DNA of 64,000 nt from the IMG/VR virus record IMGVR_UViG_3300023192_002962, positions 21,738 through 85,737 of that record; one strand, written 5' to 3'. The stretch comes from a virus. Below the pieces are notes generated by a model. That model made no database searches. It had not been told where the DNA came from and saw only the letters and a program-made list of their open reading frames with translations. This document shows positions 8,578 to 33,000 of this stretch, one piece after another. How positions within the stretch are numbered: the first letter of the stretch is position 1; each line of letters opens with the position of its first letter. The position numbers and the translations under genes were made by a program.

Positions 8578-9042
8578 ATGTATTTTTCAGGCAACGACGT
8601 AACTCTCTATATTAGTAAAGGAGGTGGTTTAAGTAAAGAGCTGTTAGATGCAGTTTCTGTGCAATTTTCTATAAATCATCCCACATCACCAGTATACTCT
8701 CATGGAGATAGACAATTTAAAACACAAATGATAGGAACAAAATTAATTCACGGATCAATTTCTTTAAATTACAAAGAAGGAACTAATCTATTAGCTTTGA
8801 CAGATAAAGGGTATTCTGAATTGTATATAATGTATGCAAAAACTGCTTATGACAATACAGTAATTAAGGGTAAAAGGTATAAAGGGGCGGGGGAGTATAC
8901 AGCAGAAACTTCCTATTGCTTAAAAGGAATAGAGATTACCGCAAGGCAACATGTTGTTACACCAAATGCTGAGAATATAGTAAACAACTACCAATTTATA
9001 GCTAGATCTTTCATTGGAAATTTATTAGAAGAAACCATGTAA
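8578..9042 (+). CDS. Tube-fold baseplate protein
   Basis: YFSGNDVTLYI...SVQFSINHPTSPVYSHGDRQF..QMIGTKLIHGSISLNY...NNYQFIAR repeats the tube signature. Confidence 0.7.
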   Translation: MYFSGNDVTLYISKGGGLSKELLDAVSVQFSINHPTSPVYSHGDRQFKTQMIGTKLIHGSISLNYKEGTNLLALTDKGYSELYIMYAKTAYDNTVIKGKRYKGAGEYTAETSYCLKGIEITARQHVVTPNAENIVNNYQFIARSFIGNLLEETM

Positions 9043-9591: not shown

Positions 9592-10200
9592 ATGGATATA
9601 TCAAAGAAAATAGCCGAATGGAAAGCCAAATATGGTTCAGTCTTTATAGTTTCTATTGAAGATAAGTCCATTTATTATAGAACATTAACTGCTTGGGAAA
9701 TCCAAAGTATAATTGATCTCACTAAACAAAACAAAGCTTCCTTAGATATAGAAGAGTCTACGTGTTTATTTGGAGTATTAGCTCCTAGTCCTTTACCTAC
9801 CTTTAGTAAACCTGGCAGTATTTCCAGTTTAAGCGAAGAGATTTGGAATAAATCAACTCTGTCAGCTGATATTATGGCAAAAACTATAAAGGATAGTAGA
9901 GAGTGGAGTGAAAGTAGCGTAGACCAAAATTATAATTTAATTATAGCAAGTGTTATGTGTAAGCTAATGCCCTCGTTAGACTTAGCTCATCTCTTGGAGT
10001 TACCTACCACTAAACTTGTAAGGCTGGGAGCAATAGTAGAAAAGATAACAGGAGAACAATTCTTAGAAGGAGAATTACTTAGTAAACAGGGAACTAAGAA
10101 AAGCATGGGTTCTGATAGAGTTACTAATGAAATGGCAGATAAAACAGCAAATCTGTTGGCGAATGCTCTTAAACAGCAAAGAACAAAGGCTAAGATATAA
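9592..10200 (+). CDS. Tail assembly chaperone (paralogue 2)
   Basis: IAEWKAKYGSVF...IYYRTLTAWE...PGSISSLSEEIWNKS parallels ORF 9137. Its stop overlaps the start of the next giant gene (TAATG). No clear SD. Confidence 0.68.
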   Translation: MDISKKIAEWKAKYGSVFIVSIEDKSIYYRTLTAWEIQSIIDLTKQNKASLDIEESTCLFGVLAPSPLPTFSKPGSISSLSEEIWNKSTLSADIMAKTIKDSREWSESSVDQNYNLIIASVMCKLMPSLDLAHLLELPTTKLVRLGAIVEKITGEQFLEGELLSKQGTKKSMGSDRVTNEMADKTANLLANALKQQRTKAKI

Positions 10201-16200: not shown

Positions 16201-18068
16201 ATGAGATGTATCCTAGAAGGTTTACATTAGATAAACTTTTAGATCCGGATGCGGAGTATCAAAATCTATCCTCCAATGAATATATAGAACCAGCAGATAC
16301 TTATTCATTAGCTGAAAGAATAGCTGGTGCTTCATGGGAGTATGCTACCCATCTTAGATCTCCTATACATTCAAAATTATTTGGAAGATACTCTCCAGAG
16401 GAACAGTATGATAGATTTGTAATGTATGGTGTTCCTTTTCAATCATGGGCAAGACCTTATGATACTTTTTTGAAACCCTATGCTAGGGGACTAAGGTCCG
16501 TTACTGATCCATTGCAAGGAGCTATGTCTTTTGCAACGGGAGGATTAATATTTGGAGGAGGCCCTGGGGCCTTAGCTGGAGCAGCAATAGGTGCTGCTTA
16601 TGGGTCGATGCACGGAATGTATAGAGCAATTACTGGTGACACGTATCGCCCACAGAACTTTAAAGATAAGGTAGAGATGCAAGAGTACTTTGATACAATT
16701 GAGTATATGAAAGCTGAGCAAATGTATATGGCTACAGGAAATCCAGATTATAGACGACAAATGGTAGGGACAATGAGAGGTTGGATTGAAACAAGTGGTG
16801 GTCAGTTTATGACAGTACCAAATAGTGGAGGTATACAGGGCCATTATGGATATGATCCTGGAAGTTTGTTTGGAACCTCATCAGGACCAGCAGCCAGAGC
16901 TGCAAGGTTAATGAATAATCCATATGCCCAAGGAATTGGGACTGATCAAGGGTTCGGATCACCGTGGAAGGGATTGGCTAATGTTTATCGTCGATTATTT
17001 AAAAGTGAAAAAACAATAAAAATATTTAGAGGAGTTGATAAGTGGCATAGAGGACAAATGGTACAACAGGGTAACTTTGTCGGAGGAGGAAAATATACTC
17101 AAAGTAGTCGTGCCCCTGCATCTCCGATGTATATACCTAAATCTGAAACAGCACTATATACTTCCGGTAGTGCTAAAGATGCAATGTCTTACGGAAGACG
17201 AGGCAGACGACCTGGAGCTCCTGAACCAACGTTGCTTGAATTTGCTGTTCCAGAAACATATGTTAGCAAAGCTGCAGTACAAATTAAAGGTCGTGATTTT
17301 AGTCATTATGTTTTTGACGAGGGCATACCTAAACGTTTTTTAAGGAGAGTCTATTCCCCAAAAACAAGCCCCCAGAGTAGAGCCTTAAAAAAAACACAGA
17401 ATCCAGCAGCTAAGAGTATAGGTGGAGACAAAGGTTTTGGATCTCCGTGGCAGGGAACAGATGACCAAGAAGCTCTTAACTATGATGCAAATATTAATGT
17501 ATTCAGCGGCTTCTCTGCTTTAGCTGCTTGGGATAGACCTTTTTGGACAGCATTCTTAGAGACTCCTGAAGATAAAAGAGATAGAATATTAGATCAGGTA
17601 GATACACGAATGGGTGATATGCTAAAAATTGCATGGGGCAGAGGTGAAGAAGTTGCAATGCCTTCAATGGATGTGTTTTTTAGTAATTATAAAAAACCGT
17701 CAGCATTAGAACCAATAATGGGACCTGATACTGATATATCTGATTATATTACCGTTACTGCCAACTCAAGCGGACTAGATGCTCATGATTTTGGTTTTGG
17801 ATGGAGAGATCAATTAAGACGAATTCAAGATTCTGCTAATGCGATTTTACCGATTAATATTCATGGAAAAGACACTCCTGCCTTTGAAGCATCGGCAGTG
17901 TCACAGGGGGACATAAGTACCGCTTTAACAAAAGTACTAACAAGGATGGGATATGAAGGAGCTAGAATACAAGTAAACTCTATGATGTCCGAAAGAGATG
18001 ATACCATTCTTAAACTTAATATAAGACGAGATTCAAGTATAGATATTATAAAGGCGTTATATGGCTAG
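10200..18068 (+). CDS. Giant tape-measure-like/ejection protein (2622-aa precursor) with intein, PD-(D/E)XK nuclease and ART-like domains
   Basis: Follows the chaperones. Mostly helical and basic, with Gly/Ala hydrophobic segments (LPGLAIGGLAGGMVGSGIPGAIVGAM; GAMSFATGGLIFGGGPGALAGAAIGAAYG). Embedded domains are listed separately. Confidence 0.75.
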   Translation: MATDDYIDDLVNPEEQGESTIAKGIGQAATTLGMFMGIHMAAMFIVTKGKMRAFSALQKSTIPRIRAAATRAATTTHSLTDFIATVGQGKGTVSRLAQSVYASSTSKTAETLRAGWKDISAYEKIGKFRELSRANKTTIVERSAGKYLREAAVFMPSFYIAEHNIGILHDGPEKEAKPAWYNLPGHAIGFAKFVPHMLAIDLGFRGVLHGAKIAASPLRGMLDPLEHSIANSPIADAAVDAYKWAERGAYREKQIAGMKIGDIIDHMGVAKDAFVKSLKSPTRTKMWRRDKEVFSGYERTTNSLYKVYTHHRQHIKVLRSQLYTKKLERYDKRIQKAGLTTEESFRHNFSDFVKFMDEPGISGRTDYQEALYKSNRAASGNELLGKQYYNENAKTPFIARILGLKRAKASDYKAGEKTLGKIYDTASKDKWNEGTDTILGKRKKDFVSKLLSNNTFIQERSGQSVNLDYLDPRYWATKGLNSFPTILGYGVIDLFPFKVMTRRPGDRVMLASGQVPLTPSQQTDAFGRKLFQKESRAGELHVTYKNVYNFSSEFNDGSRGLIMRRAGDKHYSLWDFQGSQGANVADGWVQVGKNIKLALRSDSPKGQRVHYEGLVSATDKNTRMPGEFSSNPFMRFMQEKLSLLDNKGSFPSIFRNLQMVMPEGMQNFFNVSDAVRGSRSRKILEDLKKLSQHKVDDIVQSSHKQMQMLDIVNRTKALSERVRRRSFDSTLSDDYFFNDIIKFLDTNMPGDFLKGKKIRSVDDIFDLASHIRRNVGESNLNMSERELLRVDALLNEARLSKDVLRREVHPELPVEKLKRFIYDYSVNFSRTNNLGKHGIEERMLNKAIKAFENQRITKQQLTDLEVSIFSTDFREVIRDTDFSKGRLLEKIGKDDVSKVIDSIKKGLVNKFSGAADGRSVIDTALANTGMFETAYSKAIDTGIPDLIDTLQLTMDSNPWVAYPTGFKEVLGLGLRWGISTVDKLVSSFGLGWDKGRFSTPGEVIGLQGRRLATFSAALLGYSAVDSVTDASGAFDGTFLDEGLTVGLADQAVRLRMLAAKTYDVLGVDNAARYMEGLMPGSMNVLPGLAIGGLAGGMVGSGIPGAIVGAMVNAYLGPQLKEGPLSFLSIAPPLAPFVSDLTKSYDEVQDIYEGKELLARRKGAGWTLGQTPIEGGRIEGWELHWYPKLKSQYKATPVLYGSKVEQFLAKDVPLLDFSIMDIIDPQYLTYKHYENRPYLIPDTPFTEVPIIGPVLGATLGRAYNLVHPLGQVDPMHVQEAASAFMKGNSYDWKGGAQDTFGPQYRGLGPAGVGLADRQPGQPNIGNIVLSPYDIKPLLAESVYKGWIEWMGLPGFITSAVAWGGDEPFTNVPIAPAATDMDSFARSYWDSNAGDMALTNELFRRFVPRPRTSYETVDLIHNAMPGWIPEHLRTGDPYCLLPDTLVETTNGLTRSEDITDGMLVKTMYGRFYPVSNTVSRPVEEEIYCITLPGLKDFELKVTGEHPFYIKQGDEYKWVLAKNLTTEHRVTYPLLQIQLNNIIDTNIEIDVEAKMAKLLGLLARWTKWGSTLEYRDEIPDNITKEIDSLVKLLSIDLELIKTIVYEHQSDGMAVPLVTSDLAIVLNYLEPFRVKSSTNEIKYRFHSQKAAYNTWTGLLQNKIFSFINNDTLTIRNQFAAEIAYLLDIDIKVTEFEKPYCSFSLVDSKVGPLAILSIENIRKEYYEGNVHTIEVSDDVTYCLPGAIVHNSKITHGELYLPGEGYEAAFNPDLTFPVGMSRLGRSAYDQALGMIGLSNIAEDQEEILEKGTAIHKMVQNQLMMMGATTRIEALVTDPSANLRSYVDVMLKDPRGNEMPLEIKSISAKGFERLDRPKYSHKIQLNSYLAVMGVNRGKFLYVSREDPTKTKQFSLQFDPDMWEQTLGKLREARYLAQEFLSQGYGRAAEGYSYLDRARVLLNSAPYSKEYRETFSLLEEQKVSGHLSEQESAQLSNLEGYHKAMMRKYEMYPRRFTLDKLLDPDAEYQNLSSNEYIEPADTYSLAERIAGASWEYATHLRSPIHSKLFGRYSPEEQYDRFVMYGVPFQSWARPYDTFLKPYARGLRSVTDPLQGAMSFATGGLIFGGGPGALAGAAIGAAYGSMHGMYRAITGDTYRPQNFKDKVEMQEYFDTIEYMKAEQMYMATGNPDYRRQMVGTMRGWIETSGGQFMTVPNSGGIQGHYGYDPGSLFGTSSGPAARAARLMNNPYAQGIGTDQGFGSPWKGLANVYRRLFKSEKTIKIFRGVDKWHRGQMVQQGNFVGGGKYTQSSRAPASPMYIPKSETALYTSGSAKDAMSYGRRGRRPGAPEPTLLEFAVPETYVSKAAVQIKGRDFSHYVFDEGIPKRFLRRVYSPKTSPQSRALKKTQNPAAKSIGGDKGFGSPWQGTDDQEALNYDANINVFSGFSALAAWDRPFWTAFLETPEDKRDRILDQVDTRMGDMLKIAWGRGEEVAMPSMDVFFSNYKKPSALEPIMGPDTDISDYITVTANSSGLDAHDFGFGWRDQLRRIQDSANAILPINIHGKDTPAFEASAVSQGDISTALTKVLTRMGYEGARIQVNSMMSERDDTILKLNIRRDSSIDIIKALYG
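14508..15434 (+). mobile_element. Class-1 intein (309 aa, residues 1437-1745) with degenerate LAGLIDADG core
   Basis: Starts CLLPDTLVETTNG after extein GDPY. Block B is VTGEHPFY. Ends VHTIEVSDDVTYCLPGAIVHN followed by +1 Ser. The endonuclease-like blocks (MAKLLGLLARW; AAYNTWTGLLQ) lack the catalytic DG. Confidence 0.93.
15600..15960 (+). other. RecB/Cas4-like PD-(D/E)XK nuclease domain inside the 2622-aa protein
   Basis: GTAIH (G1805-H1809), YVD (D1841), LEIKS (E1855, K1857), HKIQLNSY (Q1877-x3-Y1881), GKFLYVSRED. The motif set is complete and in order. Confidence 0.85.
17016..17354 (+). other. ADP-ribosyltransferase-fold-like domain inside the 2622-aa protein
   Basis: IFRG (R2277), LYTSGSAKDAMSYG (S2322), TLLEFAVP and YVFDEGIPKRFLRRVY follow the R-S strand order of pertussis/pierisin-type ARTs. 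The usual catalytic Glu position reads S-H-Y. Confidence 0.5.
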
Positions 18069-21000
18069 AATAAATGATATAGAACAAGAACCAATATTTT
18101 CTCCTACCTATAAAGATCCGGAGAGAAGGGCATTAAGCTTAGGTATTCTTTTATCTCTTCCTACATTATTAGGAATAGTACAAAGTAGAGCTAAATTAAT
18201 AAAAGGTGGTGTCTTTCAGAGTATAGCGAAGGCCAAGAGTGTACTACTTAAACGGATTGAGGCACTAGCTAATACTCGGCAAGCCGCTCTTGGTGAAATT
18301 GGTTCCTCAATCTCAGAACAACTTAAGGCAAATACTGATTTAATAAATAATCTTATTAGTGATCATAGTGCTGCAGAATTACATTTTGGAATTGCGGGTG
18401 GTCGTCCTTATAAAGTTACTGGACCGGGTAGCTTGTTACAACAGGAGCTATTCACAGGATCAGCCACCTGGGACACTGCGCAGCATAATCTATTAATAAA
18501 ATCGAAGGACGTAGCTCATGCTAAGTATAAAACTGCGCTAAGTGATTGGTGGTTTGGTAATATGCAATTTACAGATAAAAGAGGAGCTTATGGGCAGGTC
18601 CGGGACAGTATCCTCTCTTTTCAGGGAAACTATCTGAAGCATACTCCTCGTAAATTGGAGGAGTATCTTGTAAATGTTCACGATGTTGTGCATAGAATAT
18701 TATTACCGAGATGGCAGAATGGGTATGCTCCAGGAACATCGTATGATATAAATTTAAAAGGCGCATTAATTGAAAAAGATATTCCTATACATAAAGATTT
18801 AGTACAGGCAGCTAATGACTTGGCTGAAGCCCGAAGAAAGCTTGCTGACTTTCATGGCAATTATCAATGGTCAGGAGAACAAGTACATAAAAGATTAATA
18901 GAACTTGCTGCACAAGAAACTAAATCCCAAATAGGTGAGGGTTCTGGTTTTGGACCTTGGAGTAAACCTTCGAGATTTTCTGCATTCGATAAGGGCGCAT
19001 TAAATCCTGAGTTTATGTCTATGTTAAAAAATGATGAGTCGTATCGTCTAAATTTTTATAAAAACTTAGAAGCTCTTTATAATAGAGTAAAAGGGAATAC
19101 AATAAATCTTCCTCCTTGGGCAACAGGGGTTTCTAGTGAAAATCCATTTATTTTAAGTGATACGATGACTGCGGAATCTACTGACTTTAGAAATAAGTTA
19201 TTCCCAGGTAGAGAAAATTATAGTTTTACAAATGCCTCGGTAACAGAATTAACAGAAAAATTAGAAAGCAGAAATACTGGTTTAACTAAAGAACAAATGA
19301 AACATGTTTTGAGTCCGGAGAGATGGGGAGCTTATCATGACTTTCATAAAAAATCATTCGAGAGCATTGATCCTGTTTTTGCTGAACAGGTCCATGGACA
19401 ACGAGGAAAAGCCCAACATCTAATAGCAGTAAGAGATTCTTTTCAAGCAGAAGTTAATAAGATAAAACGGAATGTAGTTGACCTGCTCAGTATGGAAAGA
19501 ACATCAGGGAATCCAGCATACACTGCCCATATAGAGGCTTTAGCAGAGGCAGCAGGTATGGAGAGAAATCAGTATATTACTTTTATAGAGGGGTTAAAAA
19601 TAAAAGCTGAAATTGGAGCTGATCTTAGCGGAAGAATGCCCTTTAAACATGCTAAGATTATAATCATCAGACCAGGACATACACCCATTCCATTAAACAT
19701 TCCATTATCAGAATATGGAGCTTTTTTACCAAAAGCAAATTCTAAAATAAACACTTCTCCTTTGTTTTTAGATGCATTTGTACAGCCTACCATACAAAAT
19801 CTTACATCTATAGATGTAGCTATGATGAAAAAAATGCAAGTTAATGTTTCACATTATTTCAGAGATCTAGTACAGTCAGGGTATCAAAGTTCTGAAAAGG
19901 TACAGGGTCTTCATAAAAGTTATTGGGGATCATTTACGTCACTAGTACATACTGAAGTTGCTGGAATTAATCAGAACTTTTTTAGACGACAGAAAGTAGT
20001 TTCTTCAACTCTGGATATCCTAAGAGGTGCAGTAAAAGAAAGTGGAGTAGGATCAAGAAGATGGTACGCTAAGTTTACTGCAGGCTGGGAAGCATTACAA
20101 GAGATACAAAATATAAGTAAGAGACAATCCACAATTTTAGGTTTAGATTTTGAATTCAATGCTTCTAAAACCTTAGGCTTTGATGCAATTCAAGGACTAG
20201 TGGCAAAGGAAACTACTCGTCCTTATCAGGCTGCTTATCAAATAACTAGAGGGTCTAAAAAACAATTATTTAATCATTGGATTAGACCAGATAACTGGGA
20301 TAATATACGGAATAATGTAAAACGATTTATGATTCAACAAGAAGGTATGGGGGGAATGATTGAGTATTCTAAATTAGAGGCTATAATGCAAGGAGCACAG
20401 GATCCTCTTTCTAAAGGAGAGGCAGTTGTAGATTTTAGTATTGGATTTGATGAGCAGGAGAAAAATTGGAGATTTTTTACCGATGAACAAAAAATAGATA
20501 AATCTATATTTAAAAAAGGATCTATTCAATCTGTTAGAGTTCATACGGAAGCCGGTTCTTTTGTTGAAATAGCTAGAGAAATATTTAGATCACCTGATGG
20601 AGGTATCAAGTTTTTAACTCATGGAGGAGAAGAGGCAGATCTTATCTTATGGAATAAAAGAATAACTGGTATATTAGAAGAAATTAAACGAGGAAGAGAC
20701 TTTGGCATAAGTGAGGGTGAGATAGGGTTGCTAAAAAGATTACATAAGGAAACCTCATTAACTAGTTTGTTAGCAAGAGGAGCATCTTTTGATACCCACT
20801 CAATGGCAATGGTTGTTTTAGCAGAGGAGGCAGGCAGCACTAAGTTTGGATTAACTGATATTTTTCATAAGCTTCTTACCTTATCTGTAGATACTAAATT
20901 AGTTACTAGAGATGACGTAAGTAATGCTTTGAAAGCAATTGGAGGAGAAATAAAAGAGGGAAAATTGACAAAAGCAGGTAAAGCTGCATTAAAGGAATTT

Positions 21001-24000
21001 CCATTAACCGTACGTAATTCAATAAAACAACATATTCAAGCAAGTCCTCATGTTGTAAAAGAGCTATTATCTATGGGATTAGCAGGGCATCATAATCCGG
21101 CCTTTGATAATATGATTACAGATTTCAATTCTCTACTGTCAGTACAGCATTATCAAAGAACAAAAATTTACAATCCAGAACTGTTTACTCGATGGGTACA
21201 AGCATATGAGGTTGCTAAACGAATAACAACCGGAAGATCGTTATCTTCGTTCCAGGCTATAGACGTAGTCAGACAACATGAAATGTTTGATCCTGATAGA
21301 ATAAAAAGAGAGGGTGAATTTAAATTATCTTTATTTGGTGGAACTCCTGCATCAGCCGCACAAGCTCATGGCTATTTAACTGGACCAGAAACCTATTTGC
21401 CTTTTGGAAGATTAGCTAATTTACAGAAGCAGACTCAACAAGTTATGAGTGGAAGATTACTTCCTACTTTAGATTATACGGCAAGTAAAGATGTTATGAT
21501 TGAAACAGCTAAACCTATTTTAGGCCATAGACTGTTAAGTACATCTCAACAATTTTATGCTGAGGAAGATGCAAGGCTGGGAGTGTCTGCTAATAGATTT
21601 GGACTACAAGTAGCGCCCTCAGACCGAGGTGCACCTGGTCTTACTACTAGACGTACTTTATCCGTACTCTATTTATTAGGAGATAATAGAATTGTAGGAG
21701 AGGACTCTGGGCTTTGGGCTAGCAAAGAAGCTATGAAAAATGCTATTAATTTTCCTAGAAGCGCTTTTGAGGCAGTAAAGGTAGATATTCCAACAGGATT
21801 GCTTAGTAGTACAAATTTAGATAAAATGAATATGTCTCTTTATGATTTTATGCAGTCAATAGGTATTAGCGAAAGAGTTATAGAAATAACAAAGCGTAAA
21901 ATAGGAGAAGATATGTCGCTTAGGGCCTTTATAGAGGCCCATAGTCAGCAAGGTGGAGTTGCAAAAGAGCTATATAGTTCTGAAGAAGCTATAATTAGGG
22001 AAGCTACTGAACATTTTAATAAAACAGGAAAGGACTACATAAGACCTGGAGATCATATAGCGATAGGAAAAGGTCCAGTAAATTTACAAGTAGAACAGAC
22101 CGGTCAAAGATTAACTACTATTACTAGAAGTCCTATTAGTAATCCATTTAATTCAGATGCTCTTATAAAATCTATCACTTATGATACTGAAAAAAATCAA
22201 TTTATATTTAATCTTCTAGGAATAAGTAGACCTAGTATTTCTAAGTGGACATTTCAATTAAAGACAGCAAAGCCAATGCTAGTTGGGGTTGCTAACAATA
22301 CTTTAGTAGGAAAAGGAATTGATTTAATAGTTGCAATGAAAAAACCGGATGCTGCTCAGACGTTAAACATTCAAATACGTAGAGTATTACAGCATATGTA
22401 CAGAGAACGACTACCAATAGAGGTACAAGTAAAGAGAATGAAAGAAGTTCTGATGAAATCATTTAATTTGGATTCTGCAGAGCTAGATGCTATGTTTACT
22501 ATTCGCAAAAGTCCTATTTTGGATGCTAGTCAACGAGAATTATATAAGAGTTCGTTTTTAGCTACTGTTGAATTGAAAGATCCAACTGTTGCAAAGTTAG
22601 ATAGTACTAATATTTATCCTAAAGTAGCTGCTCTATTAAAAGAGCAAGGTTTAACTATTAGAAGTATGCAAAAGATTTTTGTTGAGCAACATGCCGATGT
22701 CTTACAAGAAATATTCACTGATCTTAAACTTCCTGAAATTAAATCAGAACTTAGTAGTTTATATAGAAAAGCTATAAATTTACATAAAGAAAGCTTAAAT
22801 AAATGGATAAAATCTAATCAACATATGAATATTGCAGGTCACGAGGGGTTTCATAGATTTATAGCTGCATCAAAAATGAGAGAAATATTAGGGAAGGGCT
22901 TGGCTTTTCACGACATGGCACTACTACCAAACAGAAGTGCTATGTTAGATGTATTAAATAAAAATAAGCAGCTAGGGCAAAGGCAAATACTTAAAGATGT
23001 TTTTACAAAAATAACAGAGCATGAAGTTGTAAATGAAATGTTCTTTGCTAATGCAGCATTTTTAGTTGTTGATGAAGGAGTTTTACTGGAAGATTTATCT
23101 GATGTATCTAAATATAAAGGTACACTTAAGAATTTTTACGATACCCCTACGCAGAAATCAGGAAGTTTTTCTTTATGGGAGATGTTAGTACGGATGGAGG
23201 CAGTTAAGGGCTCTAAGTTTGCTAATAAGTATATGATTCCTGAAATGATATCCTCCATGGGTTGGTATAATACTAATATCAGTTCATCATTAAGTGTTCA
23301 TAGTAAGTTTCTAGATATGTTAAAGGAGGGGTACAATGCTCCTTCTACTATAACTAGTGATCAGATTTATACCCCAGGAATGGCGGCCTTAGGACACGAT
23401 ATATCTATTTATAGATCTTCTATGCTAGGTGTATCGGAATTAGATGAATTAGTTAAAGAAGGTCTTTTTATTAAAAAAGATATAGAAGTTTTATTAAGTG
23501 ATTCTAAACTAATGCTTATTTTGAAGCAACAGTTAGGTGAGGCTTTTGTGGATAGTCATGAGTTTCAGACAAGAAGAGAATCATATATATCAGCGTTACG
23601 AGATCGTATTCAACGAGGTACAGGAAAGGGTTTTCTTTCTGGGGAAAACTTAGGTAAGATGAATATATTTAAAACAGATAAAGGTGTCAATTATATTAAA
23701 TTTGGTCTTCCTGATATAATGGCTGCTATTGAAAAAAGTGAATCTATCAGCCCTGAATTAAAAACACGCTTAAGAAAAACAGATTTATTTAGAAATGAGA
23801 AAAGTGTATTCTTTTCAAAACTAAGAGTTGCTCTGGAAGGAGTAGAAAGTAATCAAATGGAACGCTCTATGTTAGCCAAAATAGATTGGCTTAATGTTGA
23901 CAAAGGATTTCCTAATACTGCATTAGAAGATACATTAGCGAAACTAGAAGTTGCACTATCTGATCATGATAATCCTAAGAAACTTAGAGATCTTTTAGTT

Positions 24001-26880
24001 AATTTAGGAGAGCTTAAGGCGAGCTCAGCTTCAAAGCTGAAGGACAAGAACCTATGGGAACTTGCTAATAACTATAAACAAAGAGTAGTTTCTGGCCGAG
24101 AAGGACGACTAGCAGAAGTAATGTTTCCTCATTTAAAACATGAGTTTCCATTACCAGTAGGAGATCAGTATCTAATTACAGATGAAAGTGCTGCAAAATT
24201 AAAAGTAGCTAGTGCTATAGAAAGTTATCAAACACAAATAGATAAAATTGTAAAAGATCTTGAGCAAGAAGGAAGATCTCTTAAATCCTATGAAATTAAT
24301 GATAGGCTTTCTGAAATACAATCTTCCCACGAAGCATTTATGAGGAAGTTAGCTACAGGCCATATTAGTGCATTGAAAGGATTATCAAGTGCATCCTGGA
24401 AAAGTCAAAGAGCTTATGCTCCAATTATGTATGCCAAAGCAGTGGATGTTGGTATTTTATTAGAGCAAGGACTAGGTGGACTATTAGCTGACATCAAAGA
24501 TAAAAACATAAAAGGAATGGATATAAACTTCTTTGATAAGAAGATTGCATCCCCTAGCAATCCTATAATGGAAGCTATTAGAAGTAATAAATTTAGAACA
24601 CTCATTAAAGAAGCTCTTCTTTATCAGGGTAGTGATCCAACAACCGGTGAAGCTATTCTCAGCCTGGTAGGGGAAGAAGAAGCTAGAAATATACAAAGAT
24701 TGTCTTCTGAAATATTCAAACACTCTAAGGACAGCGTTACCTGGGGTGAATATTTAGGAAATATTTTAGGAATAGAACATAAACTAGGACTGAGTAATAA
24801 ACTTTTGAATAATTTATCATTATATAAGGAGATAGGTACAACAGGTTATAAGCATTACTTTGCTAAAGGTTTTGGTATAGGCGAAGGCATTATGTCCCAT
24901 AGTATGTTTGCATCCTTTCTTGAAAAAGGAAATCCAGGAGCTTTATCCATGGTACGGAAACCAGACTTGTTTAGAAGTGTACTAGCGGGTAAGTCTCCTA
25001 TTAGAGAGATGTTTGCACGAGCTCCTTTATTTGAGAACTGGTTTGGTGCACGGTTACGTAATGTTTACTTAATGCCTGATAAAATTTTTGAGCAGATGCA
25101 CCTTGATCCTAGAGATACTAAACGAATGGTGGCTGTGAGTGCACTGGATATCTTTCTACACGGTGGTGACTTTGATGGGGACTTGGCTAATTTTATGATA
25201 AATAACTCTAGTATGTATCGTAGAGAGTATTTTGGAAAAGATGCAGCATGGACCGGAGAAGTTAATGATGTGCAAAGAGTTAAGCAATGGTTGAATTTTA
25301 GAGTGCAACAAGCCGGTAGGGGTGCTCTTACAATCCAGGGACAGGACTATATTGGAATAGAAGAAACAGCAGATGGAAGACTACTTGTTCGGCACGATTC
25401 TAAGGAAAAGTTTGATTTTACTAAAAAAATGGAATTTTTAACCGAACAGATGGATGATCCTATGAAAAACATGTCTCATGCTGAAAAAAATAGAGTGTAT
25501 ATGGTACAACAAGTACTAACACCTGTCTTTGGACAAAAAGCAAAAATGTTTCATCATTCTTTTCTTCCTACAGGTGGGATTGATCCTGCAATGAAAAACG
25601 AAGTAGTGCAACGTATACAGGAAACTATACGGAAACATTATAAAGATCCTAAAATTTTGCAGGATTTGTTAACTGAATTAGGACATTTACAAGATATAAA
25701 ACCGTTGTCTCATGCTGAGTTAAAACTACAAGCTTCAAGGTACTTGGATAGTATAACTAATGCATGGGAAAGACTCCAACGAGAATCAACAATACCTTTA
25801 TATGAACAAGTTATAACACAAGATGGAACTAAGCAAAACCCTAAAATTTCAACTACAGTAAGACCAGGTACTATGAAGAAATCACGATTTGCTATGTTCT
25901 TTGATTGGCACAATAAGGCCATGATCCACGGTGTCCCAATAGAGAAAGCGAAAGCAGGACAACTTAATGATTGGTATAATATGACTGTTCAGTTTTCAAA
26001 GTTAATGTCTGGAGACAATCTTAGAGATACTAAGAATATTCATAGGTATTTCTGGGACACAAGTCCATTTACAGAGCTTAATCTGAGCACATGGTTTGTT
26101 AATCCAGGAGCGGATCATGGTATTCCGGAACATAAAGTATTGGAGATACAAGGCTTAGCGTTTATGGAAACACAAGAGACGTTTGAAGATATAATGAGAC
26201 TTAAGCAAGCGGAGCGAGCTGTGTCTAAATCTTCTCTTCTCGGAGGACTTAAGTCCGCAGCATACTGGACGCTTTCAAAAAATCCTAGAAATGCAATATA
26301 TGGAGCTCAGGTTGATCTATTAAGTGAGCAGAAAAATTGGATACACAGCGGACTGACTTCTTTGCTTGGAGTTGAACGAGCTGGTATGATTACAGATGCA
26401 GAAAGTGCGGCGTTTTTTACTATGCGATCATTTGAAGAAAGAATGGCCGGAAATAGGGCCGGTACAGAATCAATGATTAATTGGTTAAAACAGTATATGT
26501 CAGAAGGAAAAATAAATAAATGGGGAAAGAGAGCATCCGTAGGAGTTCTGGCAGCGATCTTATTTGATCCAAATGCAAATTCTTTATTGCTTCCTGATTT
26601 AGAAGTTAATGGGGAAAAATATGACATACCTTCATTTAGGGAGCTAAGTAAATCTTACAGGAATAGACTCATGAAGATCAGAAGTACCTCCCCTCCTGTA
26701 ATAGATAAACTTCTTAGAACATTTGGTTTACCGAATAGTGTTGGTGCTCGAGCTGTGCACGGACCCCCTTTACCTCCTAGACCTAATAGGGTCTCGTACT
26801 CTTATAGAGAACGTAGAGATAAAATATTAGGTATTAAAGAATATGCCAGAAAAGTTAATGGTATAATGTTAGGACAATAA
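18061..26880 (+). CDS. Putative virion-associated single-chain two-barrel RNA polymerase (fused beta/beta'-like) with a DEDDh exonuclease domain, 2939 aa
   Basis: Ordered motifs: YLPF..ANLQKQ (1119-1124), GEDS (E1214/D1215), K1395/K1401/K1404 then GIDLIV, WEMLVRMEAVKG (~1707), FARAP (R2320), GGDFDGD (D2370/D2372/D2374). The gene lies in the tail module and overlaps the previous gene by 8 nt. Confidence 0.8.
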   Translation: MARINDIEQEPIFSPTYKDPERRALSLGILLSLPTLLGIVQSRAKLIKGGVFQSIAKAKSVLLKRIEALANTRQAALGEIGSSISEQLKANTDLINNLISDHSAAELHFGIAGGRPYKVTGPGSLLQQELFTGSATWDTAQHNLLIKSKDVAHAKYKTALSDWWFGNMQFTDKRGAYGQVRDSILSFQGNYLKHTPRKLEEYLVNVHDVVHRILLPRWQNGYAPGTSYDINLKGALIEKDIPIHKDLVQAANDLAEARRKLADFHGNYQWSGEQVHKRLIELAAQETKSQIGEGSGFGPWSKPSRFSAFDKGALNPEFMSMLKNDESYRLNFYKNLEALYNRVKGNTINLPPWATGVSSENPFILSDTMTAESTDFRNKLFPGRENYSFTNASVTELTEKLESRNTGLTKEQMKHVLSPERWGAYHDFHKKSFESIDPVFAEQVHGQRGKAQHLIAVRDSFQAEVNKIKRNVVDLLSMERTSGNPAYTAHIEALAEAAGMERNQYITFIEGLKIKAEIGADLSGRMPFKHAKIIIIRPGHTPIPLNIPLSEYGAFLPKANSKINTSPLFLDAFVQPTIQNLTSIDVAMMKKMQVNVSHYFRDLVQSGYQSSEKVQGLHKSYWGSFTSLVHTEVAGINQNFFRRQKVVSSTLDILRGAVKESGVGSRRWYAKFTAGWEALQEIQNISKRQSTILGLDFEFNASKTLGFDAIQGLVAKETTRPYQAAYQITRGSKKQLFNHWIRPDNWDNIRNNVKRFMIQQEGMGGMIEYSKLEAIMQGAQDPLSKGEAVVDFSIGFDEQEKNWRFFTDEQKIDKSIFKKGSIQSVRVHTEAGSFVEIAREIFRSPDGGIKFLTHGGEEADLILWNKRITGILEEIKRGRDFGISEGEIGLLKRLHKETSLTSLLARGASFDTHSMAMVVLAEEAGSTKFGLTDIFHKLLTLSVDTKLVTRDDVSNALKAIGGEIKEGKLTKAGKAALKEFPLTVRNSIKQHIQASPHVVKELLSMGLAGHHNPAFDNMITDFNSLLSVQHYQRTKIYNPELFTRWVQAYEVAKRITTGRSLSSFQAIDVVRQHEMFDPDRIKREGEFKLSLFGGTPASAAQAHGYLTGPETYLPFGRLANLQKQTQQVMSGRLLPTLDYTASKDVMIETAKPILGHRLLSTSQQFYAEEDARLGVSANRFGLQVAPSDRGAPGLTTRRTLSVLYLLGDNRIVGEDSGLWASKEAMKNAINFPRSAFEAVKVDIPTGLLSSTNLDKMNMSLYDFMQSIGISERVIEITKRKIGEDMSLRAFIEAHSQQGGVAKELYSSEEAIIREATEHFNKTGKDYIRPGDHIAIGKGPVNLQVEQTGQRLTTITRSPISNPFNSDALIKSITYDTEKNQFIFNLLGISRPSISKWTFQLKTAKPMLVGVANNTLVGKGIDLIVAMKKPDAAQTLNIQIRRVLQHMYRERLPIEVQVKRMKEVLMKSFNLDSAELDAMFTIRKSPILDASQRELYKSSFLATVELKDPTVAKLDSTNIYPKVAALLKEQGLTIRSMQKIFVEQHADVLQEIFTDLKLPEIKSELSSLYRKAINLHKESLNKWIKSNQHMNIAGHEGFHRFIAASKMREILGKGLAFHDMALLPNRSAMLDVLNKNKQLGQRQILKDVFTKITEHEVVNEMFFANAAFLVVDEGVLLEDLSDVSKYKGTLKNFYDTPTQKSGSFSLWEMLVRMEAVKGSKFANKYMIPEMISSMGWYNTNISSSLSVHSKFLDMLKEGYNAPSTITSDQIYTPGMAALGHDISIYRSSMLGVSELDELVKEGLFIKKDIEVLLSDSKLMLILKQQLGEAFVDSHEFQTRRESYISALRDRIQRGTGKGFLSGENLGKMNIFKTDKGVNYIKFGLPDIMAAIEKSESISPELKTRLRKTDLFRNEKSVFFSKLRVALEGVESNQMERSMLAKIDWLNVDKGFPNTALEDTLAKLEVALSDHDNPKKLRDLLVNLGELKASSASKLKDKNLWELANNYKQRVVSGREGRLAEVMFPHLKHEFPLPVGDQYLITDESAAKLKVASAIESYQTQIDKIVKDLEQEGRSLKSYEINDRLSEIQSSHEAFMRKLATGHISALKGLSSASWKSQRAYAPIMYAKAVDVGILLEQGLGGLLADIKDKNIKGMDINFFDKKIASPSNPIMEAIRSNKFRTLIKEALLYQGSDPTTGEAILSLVGEEEARNIQRLSSEIFKHSKDSVTWGEYLGNILGIEHKLGLSNKLLNNLSLYKEIGTTGYKHYFAKGFGIGEGIMSHSMFASFLEKGNPGALSMVRKPDLFRSVLAGKSPIREMFARAPLFENWFGARLRNVYLMPDKIFEQMHLDPRDTKRMVAVSALDIFLHGGDFDGDLANFMINNSSMYRREYFGKDAAWTGEVNDVQRVKQWLNFRVQQAGRGALTIQGQDYIGIEETADGRLLVRHDSKEKFDFTKKMEFLTEQMDDPMKNMSHAEKNRVYMVQQVLTPVFGQKAKMFHHSFLPTGGIDPAMKNEVVQRIQETIRKHYKDPKILQDLLTELGHLQDIKPLSHAELKLQASRYLDSITNAWERLQRESTIPLYEQVITQDGTKQNPKISTTVRPGTMKKSRFAMFFDWHNKAMIHGVPIEKAKAGQLNDWYNMTVQFSKLMSGDNLRDTKNIHRYFWDTSPFTELNLSTWFVNPGADHGIPEHKVLEIQGLAFMETQETFEDIMRLKQAERAVSKSSLLGGLKSAAYWTLSKNPRNAIYGAQVDLLSEQKNWIHSGLTSLLGVERAGMITDAESAAFFTMRSFEERMAGNRAGTESMINWLKQYMSEGKINKWGKRASVGVLAAILFDPNANSLLLPDLEVNGEKYDIPSFRELSKSYRNRLMKIRSTSPPVIDKLLRTFGLPNSVGARAVHGPPLPPRPNRVSYSYRERRDKILGIKEYARKVNGIMLGQ
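20130..21130 (+). other. DEDDh (DnaQ-like) 3'-5' exonuclease domain with insertions
   Basis: ExoI ILGLDFE (D696, E698), ExoII FLTHGGEEAD (D860), FDTHSMA..FGLTDIF, ExoIII HNPAFD (H1011-x4-D1016). Confidence 0.7.
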
Positions 26881-26881
26881 T

Positions 26882-27088
26882 ATGAGACGAGTAGTTGAAA
26901 TAACTCTGCCTACTATTCCCTACGATAAGGATATTTCTGATATAGTAGGTTATCTCCGAATGGTGCTGTCTGAATTAACAAAAACATCTGTAGAAATCCA
27001 AATAAATGATATAGATTTTACAAACAAAATTGGTGTTTTTAATAATAATCGACGTCGTTCATTCCCTAATAGACAAAATAATATATAA
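26882..27088 (+). CDS. Small hypothetical protein
   Basis: 68 aa filling the gap between two giant genes and coupled to the next by TAATG. Its DIS...L..VL-x9-IQIN pattern resembles the C-terminus of the 2622-aa protein. Confidence 0.6.
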   Translation: MRRVVEITLPTIPYDKDISDIVGYLRMVLSELTKTSVEIQINDIDFTNKIGVFNNNRRRSFPNRQNNI

Positions 27089-30000
27089 TGGCTACTAATC
27101 CTACTGATGTTACATTTATAGACCCTGTAGACAAGTCTACTGTAAGACGTAAGTCGTCCGGTGAATTTAGTCAGATTGATCAACTAAAGGATATTTTTGA
27201 GAAACTACGAAAGATTATTTATGAAATAGAAGCAGGGCCAGATGGTTTCAATGCCATGGGTCCTTCTTTAGATAGTACGTTTACTACTACAAGTACAGCA
27301 ACAACCGGCTCTATGACTATGCAAGTAGATAGAGGTTTAGGGGCCCAGCAGTTAAGAGTTAGCATTATTTCTACTATGATAGATTCTTTGCTAATTCCAA
27401 ATAGTGTTCATTATACCCCTTTATTAGAATTTAAAGCCAAGATTCTTGATGAATCTTTGATTAAAAATAATGCAGATGTTACTTCATACTTTTCAGAAGA
27501 ATGGCAGGTACTATTGCATTATATTTATTTATTAGAAACAATATACTCAGCACATGCGGATAGTCTTTATCTTGAATTAATTCCTCTTAAGAATGTAGGA
27601 GGACCTGGAGCTTATGGTTTAGGAAGTATGAACATGAGCGCCATGGAGGTTCTTAAGTCTAATATTCTGCCTCCTTCTATAGTTTCTATAAAGGTAACTT
27701 CTACTAAAGACTATCTCAAGGATGGAACATACCAGAATATTTTAAAAAGTAGACATATTGAACCTTTTTATATGACACCTGAGTTAGCAGATAAACTGTT
27801 AACAGGTTATACTCTAGAAACTCCTCCCCATACCAGAGAAATGCCACCCATGTTTGCAGATCATCATATTAATGTATTTGATGGTACTGGTACAAAGAAG
27901 TATTACGCAGCACAGGGCGGTGTAGCGCATAATGCTATAATTTTTATGTTATCTTTTAGTAAAGCTCCTTCCAAGTGGCTGGAAAATGCTATGGATAATG
28001 AGGATGAATTTATAACTCTAGGGGAAGATATTGGAGCAGGGCCGGCTGATTCGCATTTAGATGTAATCTTATGGAAAGATGCAGCTTCCAGAGATGACCC
28101 AGTAAATAGACAGGCCATTCGAAAGATAATAACGACAATATTAGCTAACGGAAGAAAAAATATGTCTACTTTAGATGTGGATGATTATGTAATGTCAGTT
28201 GAGTCCCGGAAAGAATTCGAATTGTTTATTGACACTTACTTCGTTGAGTTAACTTTGGAGGAGGCCACAACACCTCCCCCTAATGGTAAATTTTTTATAA
28301 ATGGAACATGGTTTACGGATACACCTTTGTACCTACATACTTGGGCAAACGCTAATACTCCAGGAAGTCCAAATTCTGGCAAATTTTGGACAACTACAAA
28401 TTATGATTATTTACGTAAGACTTCATTGTTTGATAAGTTTTTTATAGGAACTAAATCGTTACGTCAATTAGCTAATGACGCTGGTAATTATCCTACAATA
28501 GGAGAACGCAGAGAAAAGTTTGTAGAATTTATAAACTCTTGGCACCTACTTGATAAACCAAACTCTATTAGAGCACTACAGAGCTTAATTGTGGATCATT
28601 TTAAAAACAATAGAAGTGCTTTTGCAGATTTAATAAGTTTTGGTGAGTTAAGAAATTTGGTTTTAGACTATTCGTTACATAATATCTCTCCGACTCATCC
28701 TTTGTACGTGCTTGACTCCTATTATAATATGCAGTCAATTACTTTAATAACCCCTACGGCTAAAATAGAAATAGCAACTCAAGATTCTATAGGACAAGAC
28801 TTATCCGGTCAAATACAATCTATAGAAAATTCAGAAGTAACTATTAATGTAACTGATAGCTTAACTGTTTCGAAAGTTCCAGGTTCAGAAAGCATTTCTC
28901 CTATAATAGACCAAAATGAAATAGAAACTTCAGACAAGGATATCTTACCATTTAAAGGTCTATTAGTGATGTCTACTATTTCAGCGGCTAATAGTGGAAT
29001 CGTGTATGAAGTATTAGACAGGTTTGGAACTATATGGAACCAAGGAGAAACTGCAATAACGTTTGCGATAAAAGATTCAAAAGGTAGTTTAGATCCTGGG
29101 AAATTGGGACTCAAAGGGCTGAAGTATGCCACTATCTTTCCGTTCTTTGATGAAAATGGTAATTCATTTCCTTATTCAAAAAATTATGCAACTATGACTT
29201 GGATAGAAGAAACTAAAAGTCTTTACTTCATTACTCATGATGAATATGGGTTAACACAATTTGATTATCATGCAGTAGCTTCAATTACTTTAGAGGATTC
29301 TAGTTTTACAGATGAACAGGTACCACAATGGAGAGTTGTTTTTGAGGCATATGAAGCAACAGGTGCCCATGTTTTTGATTTATATGGAGGACAGTTACTT
29401 GTATTTAATATTCCAAATATTCCGCAGGGGGCATTAATAACAGATAGAGTACAGCTCGGTATTACCTCTGTACCTAGTTATCCAGAAAAGGTTAAGAGTA
29501 AGTTATTTATTCAAGAGACCGAGCCTGTTACGCTAATGACTATTCCTGTTACTCAAAAGTTCGATGTTGAATACGATCTCTGGGGCGGCGACGGCTTTAA
29601 GAACCCCGATGGTAGTACACCGGTTGTTATGGACCCATCATGGTTTGAGGATAAGGATACTGAAGAAGAAGCATTAGATGATGGTGGTGGAACTATTTCT
29701 CCATCAATAACAACAACTTTCAGTATTGGCAGTAAGGAAGTACCAATTGATGAATATTTAAGAGTACTAGAAAAAATTCAATTTAATAAGCCCTCAGTTG
29801 CAACAGACATTTCAGATATAATACAATATAATACGGAAACGGGTGAATCATTAACCAGATCTACTTCACTACCAGCTAAAGCTTTACAAACGGATAGTCA
29901 ATTTAAATACGTAAGACCTGCTAATCCAGAGGACACTGGAGTAATGTATATTGGTGATATACTTTTTCATATACCTCCAGTTAATCTGAGGTTCAGCACT

Positions 30001-33000
30001 GTTAACCAAACAATGTCGATTCCTACTATGAGAACAAAAGGGGATCCTATTAATACAAGTAATAATAATATACCTAAGGTAGATATAACAGTATATTTTA
30101 AAGGAACAGAGCAAATAAATAACACTCTTAGACCTTTGCTTGCTCTTTCCCAAGTTATGCCAACTACCTCTGTTCAAAATACTACCATTTTTGATTCGTG
30201 GATAGGTAGGAGAGATAAACTTTCTGACAGTACCTTAGACGAAATAGATAGATTTTTACCATTACCGTGCTATTTAGAGAGCATAAACGTCGGTACTATT
30301 CCCGGTTTTCCGAATACACTGCAGGCACACATTACTTTGATTCAAATGGACATTTCACCAATGGTTCCAGTTTTAACCTATTGGAAATATACATCCGATG
30401 CTCTAAATCAAGCTATGATGAAAACAACAAGGCAATCTATAAGTAATACAATCTTAACTATAAAGGACAAAGAGACTCCAGGGCTTACCAAGAATCCTAA
30501 AAATGATAGTGAAATCAAAGTACTTAATTCAGTGGGTCAATTGTTAACAATAAAACTCCCGGATAAAATGGATCAAGTCGATGACGACAAAATTACCGTC
30601 TATCCCCAAGAATCATTTCCCTTTAGAAAACTATATAGAAATAGATTATTAGAGGAAGAGAATACTTTTAGTAGAGTAGTGAAAGATCCCTTCTTACATT
30701 GGAATAAATATCTTCCTGCAGAAAATTCTACTTTGTATTTGACATATAAATCCCCAAGATATTTTAATGATGAATGGTATAGTTTTAAAAGTAGATTTGA
30801 TCTATTAGCTCAAAATATGAATGGAGTCAGATTATTATTTCAAATAACAGGTGCAGGCCTGACAGAAGAAGCAAGTATATCAAATCTGTTTAGAAAAACT
30901 GAAGATTTTGGACTACGAGAGGCCATAGAATATATGGTAGGAGCATTATCTTGGGTAAAAGACTGGGACGCCACAATTAGTATTCTTAATAGAGAATGGA
31001 AAAAAACTGTTGTAGGTATGGCTCGAAGATTTGGATCTGAGCCATTAATGATAACATTCAATAATTTGGATGGTACAGAGGAAACAGTAAATTTAGCCGA
31101 CTGGGTAGATTCTACTAGTGTTGATTTAGAATATGTTGATGAAGACGGAAATATAAAACAACCAGTTAGAGATATTATAAACTCACTGGTTAAGAGATTT
31201 GCAGAAGACCTGCAGCCTGATAAACGAGCAAAAAATGGAAATGTTTTACCGGCGTCTCTTGATTTTGTTGAAACTATTATTCAAAATATCCTAATTAATC
31301 CTATATTTGATGAAGAAACTCCGACCAATCCTCTAAACTATGAAGATATACAAATAGGACTTGGATGGTCTGAGTCTCCGTCTGTAGAAAATATAGATCT
31401 TTTAGTTAAACAAGGTTTATTTCCGACTATGACTAAGGAAGGCAAAAAACAAAGAGGAAAAGTTGTTAGATATCATTTTCAATCCGTGATTCAATCAATA
31501 AGTTGGTCATATGCAAATAATTTATCTCCTATGTTTTTAGCCTCTTCTACGTTGCCGACTTATCAGCATATGGGAACAGCTAATGCTATGGTAACTATAT
31601 CTCTTAGAACACGAGATGAACGATTAATAAAAATATTAACAGATATGAAAGAAGCAGCTAATGCAATTGGTTCACAAATATTATCTGGAAATACAGAGTT
31701 GGTAGGTTTTGATGTTATTTCACTATCAGGGGCTATGGATAAAGTATACTCCGGCCATTTATTAAACTCCTTTGGCTTTAAACATTGCAGTATTGCAAGT
31801 ATGGAACATAGAAATATGGAAGGTTTTCCCGGGTGGTGGGAAGTAAATATTGATTTAATTGAAAATAATACTGTTCTAAGATCATGGGAAAACTTATCTC
31901 TTGTTCCATCAATAGGTTCAAATACTATCAATATACTTAAAAAAGCTTTATTTGCTATTCCTTTTGTTGTTGATTCAGGTGCGGAATTTGATCCTACACT
32001 AGCCGGTCTTCAAGGTACAGGAAAAGAAATCACAATAAAAAAAGATATTGGTGGTAAGAAGACGTATAATAATAGAACCCGCTCCGTCACGACAGCTAAG
32101 AACGTTGTAACAATAAAGACAACAATTCCAGAGAAACCTCCTTCAGAAAAATTAAATTTTGATGAAATAGCACTACAAGAACTTCCATTGGAAAGTATAA
32201 TAGATCACTTAGTAAGAAGGGTAGTTCATGTCAGGACAGGCAAGAACTATGCTAAAGTAACATTAAAAGAAGTTGAAAGATCTGGTACTATAAAAGCAAC
32301 TTATAAGGAGTGGACAATAAATTTTGATAAGGATGGAAATGAACTAAAAGGACGATATAGCAAAGATGAAATAGCTAGAGTAGAGGAAAAATGGGCATGG
32401 AAAGTATTCCAAAGTAAAAGAAAACCAAGCTATAAGGGTAATGTTGTTCTTGATCACTCGAAAGCTCTGGGTCCTTGGTTAGAAAAGTTGGCTGATATAA
32501 CTAAGTTGTTTTCAGAGTATGACAAATATCTTAAAGGTGCAGATGTTAATTATCCTCAGTATACTAACGAAGCACAAGGGTTACCCGATAGACAAATAGC
32601 ATTTGGTCTTCAAGCAGCCGTCGAAGATGCAATAGGTGCTTGTATTGAGATGACTTGTTATTTATTTGATTCAGCAGCATATAACTTAGTCGAGAGATCT
32701 TATAGAGAGGTTGAAGACAGAATTGCAAAGTTTATAAAGATGTATCCTGAGGCATTTTCATCTTCTGGAACTTTACCTTTAAGAGAGGCAATATTCAGTG
32801 CAGTGAAATATGGTCCATCTCTGGCCAAATATGATTATTCCGTCCAGCCTTCCACCACATTTTTTACAAAAGGACTCAGATATCATATTGTTAAAGGATT
32901 TTTTATAGACCCCATTAATGCCTCTATTAATTTAAATACTGATGCATTAACTATTGAAGCGGGTATGTTTAGTAATACTTTATCTAATAAATTAACACCA

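Follow-up and report, generated by a model that had tools for sequence, protein, structure and literature searches.

Virion-delivered RNA polymerases (RNAPs) of the two-barrel type have been demonstrated experimentally in giant phage proteins, namely in gp66 of crAss-like phages (10.1101/2020.03.07.982082) and in gp96 of phage P23-45 and its relatives (10.1101/2022.12.01.518664). gp96 of Thermus phage P23-45 is a fusion of the virion RNAP with the tail tape measure protein (10.1101/2022.12.01.518664 / PMC10770324; PDB 8H2M) and lacks the C-terminal part of the clamp (10.1101/2022.12.01.518664), and gp66 of phage phi14:2 (2,180 amino acids [aa]; PDB 6VR4) is a single-chain two-barrel RNAP without Pfam-level similarity to cellular RNAP. 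Here, we analyze P0001, a gene of an IMG/VR virus (record IMGVR_UViG_3300023192_002962, 86,116 bp, estimated by CheckV to be 46% complete), located within a window of 64,000 nucleotides that comprises bases 21738–85737 of the record and to which all coordinates below refer unless stated otherwise. P0001 (18061–26880, + strand) is one uninterrupted open reading frame (ORF) of 2,939 aa. We consider that aa ~1095–2760 of its product probably constitute a highly diverged, single-chain two-barrel RNAP, which would be packaged in the virion, ejected and used to transcribe the first phage genes. The case for an RNAP is carried by family-wide conservation and by fold evidence, not by motif resemblance.

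With respect to function and architecture, the tape-measure-fused gp96 and the giant ejected protein gp66 are the closest cases to P0001. The gp66 gene likewise belongs to a group of giant genes next to the tail genes, and its product shares with P0001 the lack of recognizable Pfam-level kinship to cellular enzymes, and bears an RxP motif about 40 aa ahead of its DFDxD triad. However, the triad reads DFDID in gp66 and D[FYL]DGD in the P0001 family, hhalign (probability <1%) and hidden Markov model (HMM) searches revealed no similarity that would place P0001 in the gp66 family, and, in contrast to the crAss-like phages (Crassvirales podoviruses), the P0001 phage carries baseplate and sheath genes. 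Compared to gp96, which is without the C-terminal clamp part, P0001 has a full clamp-like domain in its predicted structure; its putative polymerase has an ORF of its own, one of three giants, and bears an N-terminal DEDDh-like motif set. Moreover, P23-45 has a siphovirus tail, whereas the P0001 phage has sheath-like and Baseplate_J genes, and HMMs of the P0001 family match nothing in the P23-45 genome, so that P0001 does not group with the gp96-type proteins.

The jumbo-phage enzymes of AR9 and phiKZ (PDB 7S00/7S01, 7OGP) have their β and β′ parts split into small genes that lie outside a tape-measure slot, whereas everything is fused in P0001, and there is no sequence similarity between the two groups. 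With cellular β′ (RpoC/Rpb1), P0001 shares a collinear structural alignment across β′ residues ~20–1257 as well as the RAP and (N/G)(A/G)DFDGD signatures, and counterparts of the lysine-bearing motifs of cellular β (RpoB/Rpb2) are plausible in its β-like part. Nevertheless, P0001 fails all Pfam models of β and β′, contains large lineage-specific inserts in a single chain, and has no evident α, ω or σ partners. The YonO/QDE-1-type enzymes of PF05183 resemble P0001 in being single chains with a D-bulky-D-G-D triad, but PF05183 gave no match at E ≤ 10 and the family HMMs remained blank in SPbeta. YonO is small and not a virion protein. As judged by sequence comparison, the P0001 family is thus not a member of the gp66, gp96, AR9/phiKZ or cellular families. 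A previous reading of the DNA from sequence alone (hereafter, the sequence-only reading) had placed the putative enzyme with gp66, gp96 and YonO rather than with the split phiKZ/AR9 subunits; the fused chain agrees with this placement, but a sequence kinship to gp66, gp96 or YonO was not found, and the best fold matches of P0001 are AR9/phiKZ and cellular β′, i.e. the group that had been set in contrast.

Results

A metagenomic protein family with an invariant polymerase-like signature

A word-indexed search yielded two relatives of P0001 with ~40% identity, and an exhaustive HMMER search of 1.84 billion representatives added six full-length proteins with 18–24% identity along with fragments. 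Scanning IMG/VR and JGI metagenomes for patterns contributed nine further loci, with one extra locus gained in IMG/VR scans, while a second word-indexed search with a 9-sequence alignment returned only the cluster of the query itself. After removal of duplicates, the family set comprised 15 non-redundant homologues with 16–55% pairwise identity. All members reside on metagenome or IMG/VR contigs, among them CEPX- and JACKQG-prefixed assemblies and contigs of 70–115 kb, and tblastn with P0001 and three divergent relatives found none in 50,697 GenBank phage records. The phage group therefore appears to be uncultured. Neither names nor Pfam domains were found among family members (hmmscan of nine members), and P0001 itself carries no Pfam, PHROG or source name, as the sequence-only reading had anticipated of annotation pipelines.

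While mean column conservation in the family is ~35–40%, individual residues are retained in ≥93% of the sequences. These include K1395, K1404, R1440 and R1441 in the candidate β-like part; K2126, G2270, E2275, R2320, P2322, G2369, D2370, D2372, G2373, D2374 and L2375 in the part assigned to the catalytic barrel; and, elsewhere, I2627, K2629 and K2631 as well as D860, H1010 and D1016. D1215 is retained in 13 of 14 members, and an LPF..NLQKQ block is mostly retained. The triad has the form D[FYL]D[GR]D across the family, with DFDRD in one member. In P0001, DFDGD (aa 2370–2374; 25168–25182, + strand) is the sole DxDxD motif, and D2370, D2372 and D2374 form the putative Mg-binding triad. An invariant DxDxD triad preceded by RxP, as found here, is one hallmark of the two-barrel RNAP superfamily; the distance between the two elements is 49 aa in P0001 and 34 aa in Escherichia coli β′. 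The family-wide conservation of these signature residues indicates functional constraint on the β′-type motifs as well as on the lysines assigned to a putative β-type barrel.

The motif strings on which the sequence-only reading was based are all present within the single ORF, at the places given for them: YLPF (aa 1112–1115), ANLQKQ (aa 1119–1124), VGEDSGLWAS (aa 1212–1221), SKWTFQLKTAK (aa 1394–1404), GIDLIV (aa 1419–1424), GSFSLWEMLVRMEAVKG (aa 1701–1717), MFARAP (aa 2317–2322) and LHGGDFDGD (aa 2366–2374), eight in total. As the ORF is uninterrupted, the view that P0001 is a single chain rather than a set of split subunits likewise holds.

Predicted fold of the β′-like half

Two AlphaFold models were built separately, each from a 20-row alignment, one covering aa 1195–2394 (model 1) and one covering aa 2095–2760 and including the newly found loci in its alignment (model 2). 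Model 2 reached a predicted local distance difference test (pLDDT) score of 70.6 and a predicted template modeling (pTM) score of 0.64, and in model 1 helical parts were moderately confident. Models were compared by VIA-align in an exhaustive structural search against 48,161 non-redundant PDB chains, of which the 50 best entries are listed per query. For model 2, RNAP largest subunits account for 10 of these 50 entries, with alignments at their catalytic double-psi β-barrel (DPBB), about eight further entries are other DPBB proteins, and all matches spanning model residues ~30–350 are DPBB proteins.

The RNAP entries, all with Z values in the range that the tool flags as a possibly common arrangement, comprise tobacco plastid β′ (residues 387–550; Z 5.2; 130 aligned positions), chain d of the AR9 non-virion RNAP (251–424; 5.2; 134), the phiKZ non-virion RNAP (295–472; 4.8; 136), Pol III C160 (378–551; 4.6; 98), vaccinia Rpo147 (287–1204; 4.2; 224), P23-45 gp96 (606–928; 4.1; 110; 17% identity), and Pol I, Pol V and archaeal A′ (various regions; 3.9–4.1; 145–264). 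The other DPBB proteins, to which the same caution applies, include Cdc48-N, UFD1, Pex1/6-N and two designed DPBBs (various regions; 4.0–4.9; 80–96). A second-look structural search with model 2 added the β′ subunits of E. coli, Caulobacter and M. tuberculosis as well as human Rpb1. In the barrel matches, NADFDGD-bearing segments of the targets are set opposite the DFDGD-bearing segment of P0001.

In model 1, four of the 50 listed entries are RNAP largest subunits, again with Z values in the flagged range. Here, aa 1752–2121 match the N-terminal clamp, with AR9 (7s00_d, residues 6–240), Pol I, E. coli β′ (23–345), plastid β′ and the archaeal clamp among the targets. In model 2, the following segment, aa 2124–2424, matches the catalytic DPBB of E. 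coli β′ (353–502), and a structural match extending to aa 2713 covers β′ 354–1257. Residues 6–240 and then 251–424 of AR9 chain d thus map to aa 1752–2121 and then aa 2124–2424 of P0001, and the two models together provide a consecutive, collinear coverage of β′ from ~20 to ~1257. As we estimate ~30 clusters of RNAP largest subunits among the 48,161 chains, ~0.03 such entries would be expected among 50. The enrichment (10 of 50 and 4 of 50), the use of separate models and the collinearity within the same target chains make a chance result unlikely.

Structure prediction and structure search, which the sequence-only reading had called for, gave a split outcome: the clamp and the catalytic DPBB match RNAP largest subunits in VIA-align, but Foldseek searches with both models against the PDB, BFVD and the ESM Atlas returned nothing at E ≤ 0.001. 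The top Foldseek matches of model 1, although weak, are Pol I A190 chains. For aa 2095–2760, the nearest named ESM Atlas cluster is a phage PF05183 cluster (two-barrel RNA-dependent RNA polymerase [RdRP]), with a score of 0.84 that is too low to make it anything beyond a lead. In the predicted structure, the triad segment adopts a β′/Rpb1-like DPBB, as expected for a member of the superfamily. Based on the invariant RxP...GD[FYL]DGDL signature and on the collinear clamp and DPBB matches of the two models, we suggest, with modest confidence, that P0001 contains a β′-like clamp and a β′-like DPBB fold; this half of the original proposal is upheld.

Proposed domain layout of P0001

The modeled parts and the conservation profile suggest the following layout on the + strand. 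The candidate β-like module (aa 1095–1735; 21343–23265) is delineated by conserved residues and holds LPF..NLQKQ (1113–1124), GEDS (1213–1216), K1395, K1404, GIDLIV (1419–1424), R1440/R1441 and SLWEM..EA (1704–1715); in the RNAP we propose, it would contain a lysine/arginine-bearing barrel. It would be followed by the β′-like clamp (aa 1752–2121; 23314–24423), corresponding to the first ~350 residues of β′/Rpb1, and by the β′-type catalytic DPBB (aa 2124–2424; 24430–25332), in which D2370, D2372 and D2374 would hold the catalytic Mg2+. Apart from G2369-DFDGD-L2375, the putative catalytic barrel holds Y2124/K2126, KGxGxGE (2269–2275) and R2320-A-P2322, and it has a ~125-aa helical insert. The helical region after the barrel (aa 2425–2713; 25333–26199) includes a conserved PIEKxK block, in which I2627, K2629 and K2631 lie, and is collinear with the region of β′ that bears the bridge helix and the trigger loop; bridge-helix/trigger-loop-like helices would thus extend to ~2713.

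Outside the polymerase-like part, the N-terminal region (aa 1–679; 18061–20097) has no family match, a hydrophobic segment at aa 24–42 and ~50 conserved residues at its beginning. The C-terminal domain (aa 2800–2939; 26458–26877), with the motif DPNxNS..LLP..GEKYDIPS, stands out in the conservation profile, and no other stretch of the family, the catalytic barrel included, is as conserved as these last ~140 aa. These C-terminal residues and the first ~50 aa with their hydrophobic segment could represent signals for virion incorporation or membrane insertion.

Directly N-terminal to the polymerase-like part, aa 680–1030 (20098–21150) resemble a DEDDh exonuclease at the level of motifs (LDFEFN, GHNxxEADL and GHHxxxFD), with Exo I (DxE), Exo II (NxxxD) and Exo III (HxxxxD) all represented, and the corresponding residues D696, E698, D860, H1010 and D1016 are conserved across the family. 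A PDB profile search, PF00929 and hhalign were all non-significant for this region; the top hhalign match is Exo III, aligned in register with a non-significant E of 0.12.

Evidence on the β-like barrel and on kinship by sequence

Several results weigh against a two-barrel RNAP in P0001. By sequence, no method linked the protein significantly to any RNAP. phmmer and profile searches of the PDB, using 3-, 12- and 14-sequence alignments, returned noise only, and when the entire record was searched in six frames, PF00623, PF00562 and PF05183 all remained without a match at E ≤ 10, although positive controls for PF00623 and PF00562 matched in 14 of 14 genomes; PF00940 had no match in the six-frame search either, but its control matched nowhere. 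PHROGs and Pfam searches with P0001 and nine homologues gave nothing relevant, and HMMs of both halves found no matches in the genomes of AR9, phiKZ, P23-45, SPbeta and phi14:2. Using hhalign with RpoB and RpoC alignments built from 21–23 proteobacterial loci, only a 7-residue GDFDGD stretch paired with NADFDGD of RpoC (E 0.007–0.08; probability <6%).

The sequence-only reading had emphasized that six motifs match cellular RNAP in the right order. In a collinear-chain test, in which eight E. coli β/β′ blocks were placed by dynamic programming with BLOSUM62 at positions not chosen beforehand, P0001 attained a score of 138, compared to 126 ± 10 for shuffled sequences (z = 1.2; 33 of 300 shuffles reach 138) and to 118–130 for the neighboring giant ORFs, and only NLQKQ and DFDGD were recovered at the positions assigned to them earlier. 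As a likeness to cellular RNAP, the motif order is therefore not separable from chance, and the argument based on it cannot stand alone.

Structural data likewise include unfavorable observations. Model 1 as a whole has a pLDDT of 57 and falls below 50 at both putative barrels, and pLDDT values below 50 also occur in model 2, namely at the RAP loop and in the strand that follows DFDGD. gp66 (6VR4) and QDE-1 are absent among the structural matches listed. E1214, which the sequence-only reading had expected next to the triad together with D1215, is variable (E/Q/L) and not conserved. Furthermore, aa 1095–1735 lack a significant profile or fold match to β: the structural search found no fold match for this region, with lists that were filled by other domains and barely covered it, and an ESM Atlas search with aa 1095–1760 returned nothing. 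A two-chain prediction with aa 1095–1480 and aa 2115–2400 gave a score of 0.00, with low fold confidence of the chains themselves, an outcome that counts neither for nor against the pairing of the barrels.

Some features of the same region would fit a β-type barrel. Model 1, with its pLDDT below 50 at the putative barrel, shows strands around K1395–K1404 and then a helix that begins at A1431, a pattern compatible with E. coli β 1063–1114 (GDK...GNKG...VDIV...NIGQILE). The top hhalign match to rpoB, although non-significant (E 0.12), aligns aa 1430–1478 with β 1108–1164, in register with the earlier mapping and just after the K-K motif. We treat a β-like barrel within aa 1095–1735, and the packing of two barrels into one active site, with the triad near E1214/D1215 and K1395–K1404 as foreseen in the sequence-only reading, as working assumptions that may hold for P0001.

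The P0001 gene in a baseplate-bearing tail module

All sizeable ORFs of the window are on the + strand. Upstream in the record are genes for a head-maturation protease, a T4-type large terminase and a Mu-like portal. The terminase is interrupted by an intein (contig bases 9649–11952, locus L002; Intein_splicing 9.9e-11, Hint 6.8e-07). Within the window, an 887-aa protein (3032–5695) has a sheath-like C-terminus. It is directly followed by three adjacent ORFs (5834–6439, 6472–7851 and 8578–9042) that match phrog_9206 ("major head protein") over its ~150 N-terminal positions and look like paralogues; given their location directly after the sheath-like gene, their products may belong to the tube or tail and not to the capsid.

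P0001 is the middle member of a trio of giant ORFs. The upstream ORF (2,622 aa; 10200–18068, + strand) overlaps the ATG of P0001 with its stop by 8 nt, and both this overlap and the gene order of P0001 recur at the homologue locus L004. The 2,622-aa ORF contains an intein-like region, with weak intein/Hint Pfam matches at aa 1437–1745, and a PD-(D/E)XK/Cas4-like nuclease region, with exonuclease PHROG matches at aa 1797–1930 (E 8e-17); together with the intein in the terminase, this would bring the inteins of the phage to two or more. The downstream ORF (5,143 aa; 27088–42519, + strand) has no Pfam match and contains two stretches, at aa 952–1093 and about aa 4689–4985, that match phrog_20474 ("endolysin", a 1,954-position profile). 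The trio is followed by a Baseplate_J protein (Pfam 4.3e-19) and then by large, fibre-sized ORFs, and it is conserved at every homologue locus inspected (L004, L007, L009, L013 and L014).

As judged from the flanking sheath/tube-like genes and Baseplate_J, the P0001 gene occupies the tape-measure/hub slot of a tail module with a baseplate, in line with the tail-module location originally assigned to it, and the tail is probably of the contractile type. A crAss-like phage, first suggested by the three giant ORFs, was rejected, since Baseplate_J and the sheath-like gene, as well as the matches to a T4-type terminase and a Mu-like portal, argue against it.

Discussion

Based on these results, we favor a model in which P0001 would be packaged in the virion with its two giant neighbors and be ejected with the genome DNA; the position of the gene among three giants in the tape-measure slot makes packaging and ejection most likely. 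Ejected P0001 would then transcribe early phage genes without recourse to the RNAP of the host. DNA-dependent RNA synthesis, a role in early transcription and packaging are here proposed from genome context and from the analogy to gp66 and gp96.

The weakest element of this model is the first barrel. Only aa ~1750–2760 might be RNAP-derived, with aa 1095–1735 not being a β-type barrel and the second barrel acting in trans or missing altogether. Such an arrangement would be consistent with the confinement of the fold evidence to the β′-like part, with the lack of a significant profile or fold match in the β-like part and with a motif chain no better than chance, and, as the record represents only 46% of the genome, a partner might be encoded in the remainder. 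We nevertheless regard it as unlikely. The residues 1095–1735 are as conserved as the β′-like part, with K1395, K1404 and R1440/R1441 invariant and D1215 nearly so, and they form a module directly N-terminal to the clamp, as in natural β-β′ fusions, gp66, gp96 and QDE-1. In addition, the best hhalign match of this module is in register, and the structural lists, being occupied by other domains, hardly probed the region. A different question is whether a working two-barrel polymerase in P0001 would serve early transcription at all, rather than provide replication primers, copy RNA in a QDE-1-like manner or make an RNA or oligonucleotide for regulation or anti-defence. RdRP-type two-barrel enzymes typically have a triad of the D-bulky-D-G-D form, a PF05183 RdRP cluster is the nearest named neighbor in the Atlas, and a fused DEDDh-like exonuclease motif set is not a known feature of transcriptases. 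However, PF05183 itself has no match in P0001, and a full β′-type clamp combined with a position in the tail module fits the two studied virion transcriptases (10.1101/2020.03.07.982082; 10.1101/2022.12.01.518664), so that another task for the enzyme seems improbable to us.

Alternatively, P0001 might not be an enzyme of this kind. Its location in the tape-measure slot among giant, structural-looking genes and its long helical stretches would suit a structural tape-measure or ejection protein that contains a non-catalytic, RNAP-derived domain or an acidic motif binding a structural metal ion. Yet, the triad, RxP and the lysines are strictly conserved at ~20% identity, which argues for a maintained active site, while exapted domains usually lose such triads; we thus give a purely structural role little credence. 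It is also conceivable that P0001 bears no relation to RNAP, that DFDGD is a motif of another enzyme and that the structural matches reflect AlphaFold recalling an RNAP fold from this motif. This explanation appears very improbable, as the clamp match arose from a segment without an RNAP-like motif, in a separate model and collinear with the barrel match, and as the share of RNAP largest subunits among the best entries of both models is far above that expected from our estimate of their number among the chains searched.

We therefore retain a virion-packaged, single-chain two-barrel RNAP as the preferred interpretation of P0001. Beyond it, we tentatively raise a more specific possibility, about which we remain rather doubtful: P0001 may represent a complete, clamp-bearing β-β′ fusion lineage that is joined to a DEDDh 3′-5′ exonuclease and delivered through a contractile tail. 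In the models, the fold of such a protein would be closer to the β′ of jumbo phages and cells than to gp66 or QDE-1. If this were the case, a DnaQ-type nuclease built into a two-barrel transcriptase would be seen here for the first time, and this nuclease might serve to proofread or process RNA or be directed against nucleic acid of the host.

Compared to the systems described before, P0001 stands for a sequence-orphan lineage present only in metagenomes, with a contractile-tail-type module, a full clamp-like domain in its predicted structure and a possible fused exonuclease. If the preferred interpretation is true, the P0001 family would constitute a third lineage of virion RNAPs, unrelated in sequence to gp66 and gp96, and it would provide a new, very divergent data point on the evolution, fusion and splitting of β and β′. 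Enzymes of this kind are candidates for rifampicin-insensitive, single-polypeptide transcription tools. Each genome of this marine or metagenomic group of phages would have ~9 kb of its "hypothetical" sequence explained, and a self-carried, cell-type transcriptase in the tail/ejection module would emerge as a recurrent strategy of uncultured phages.

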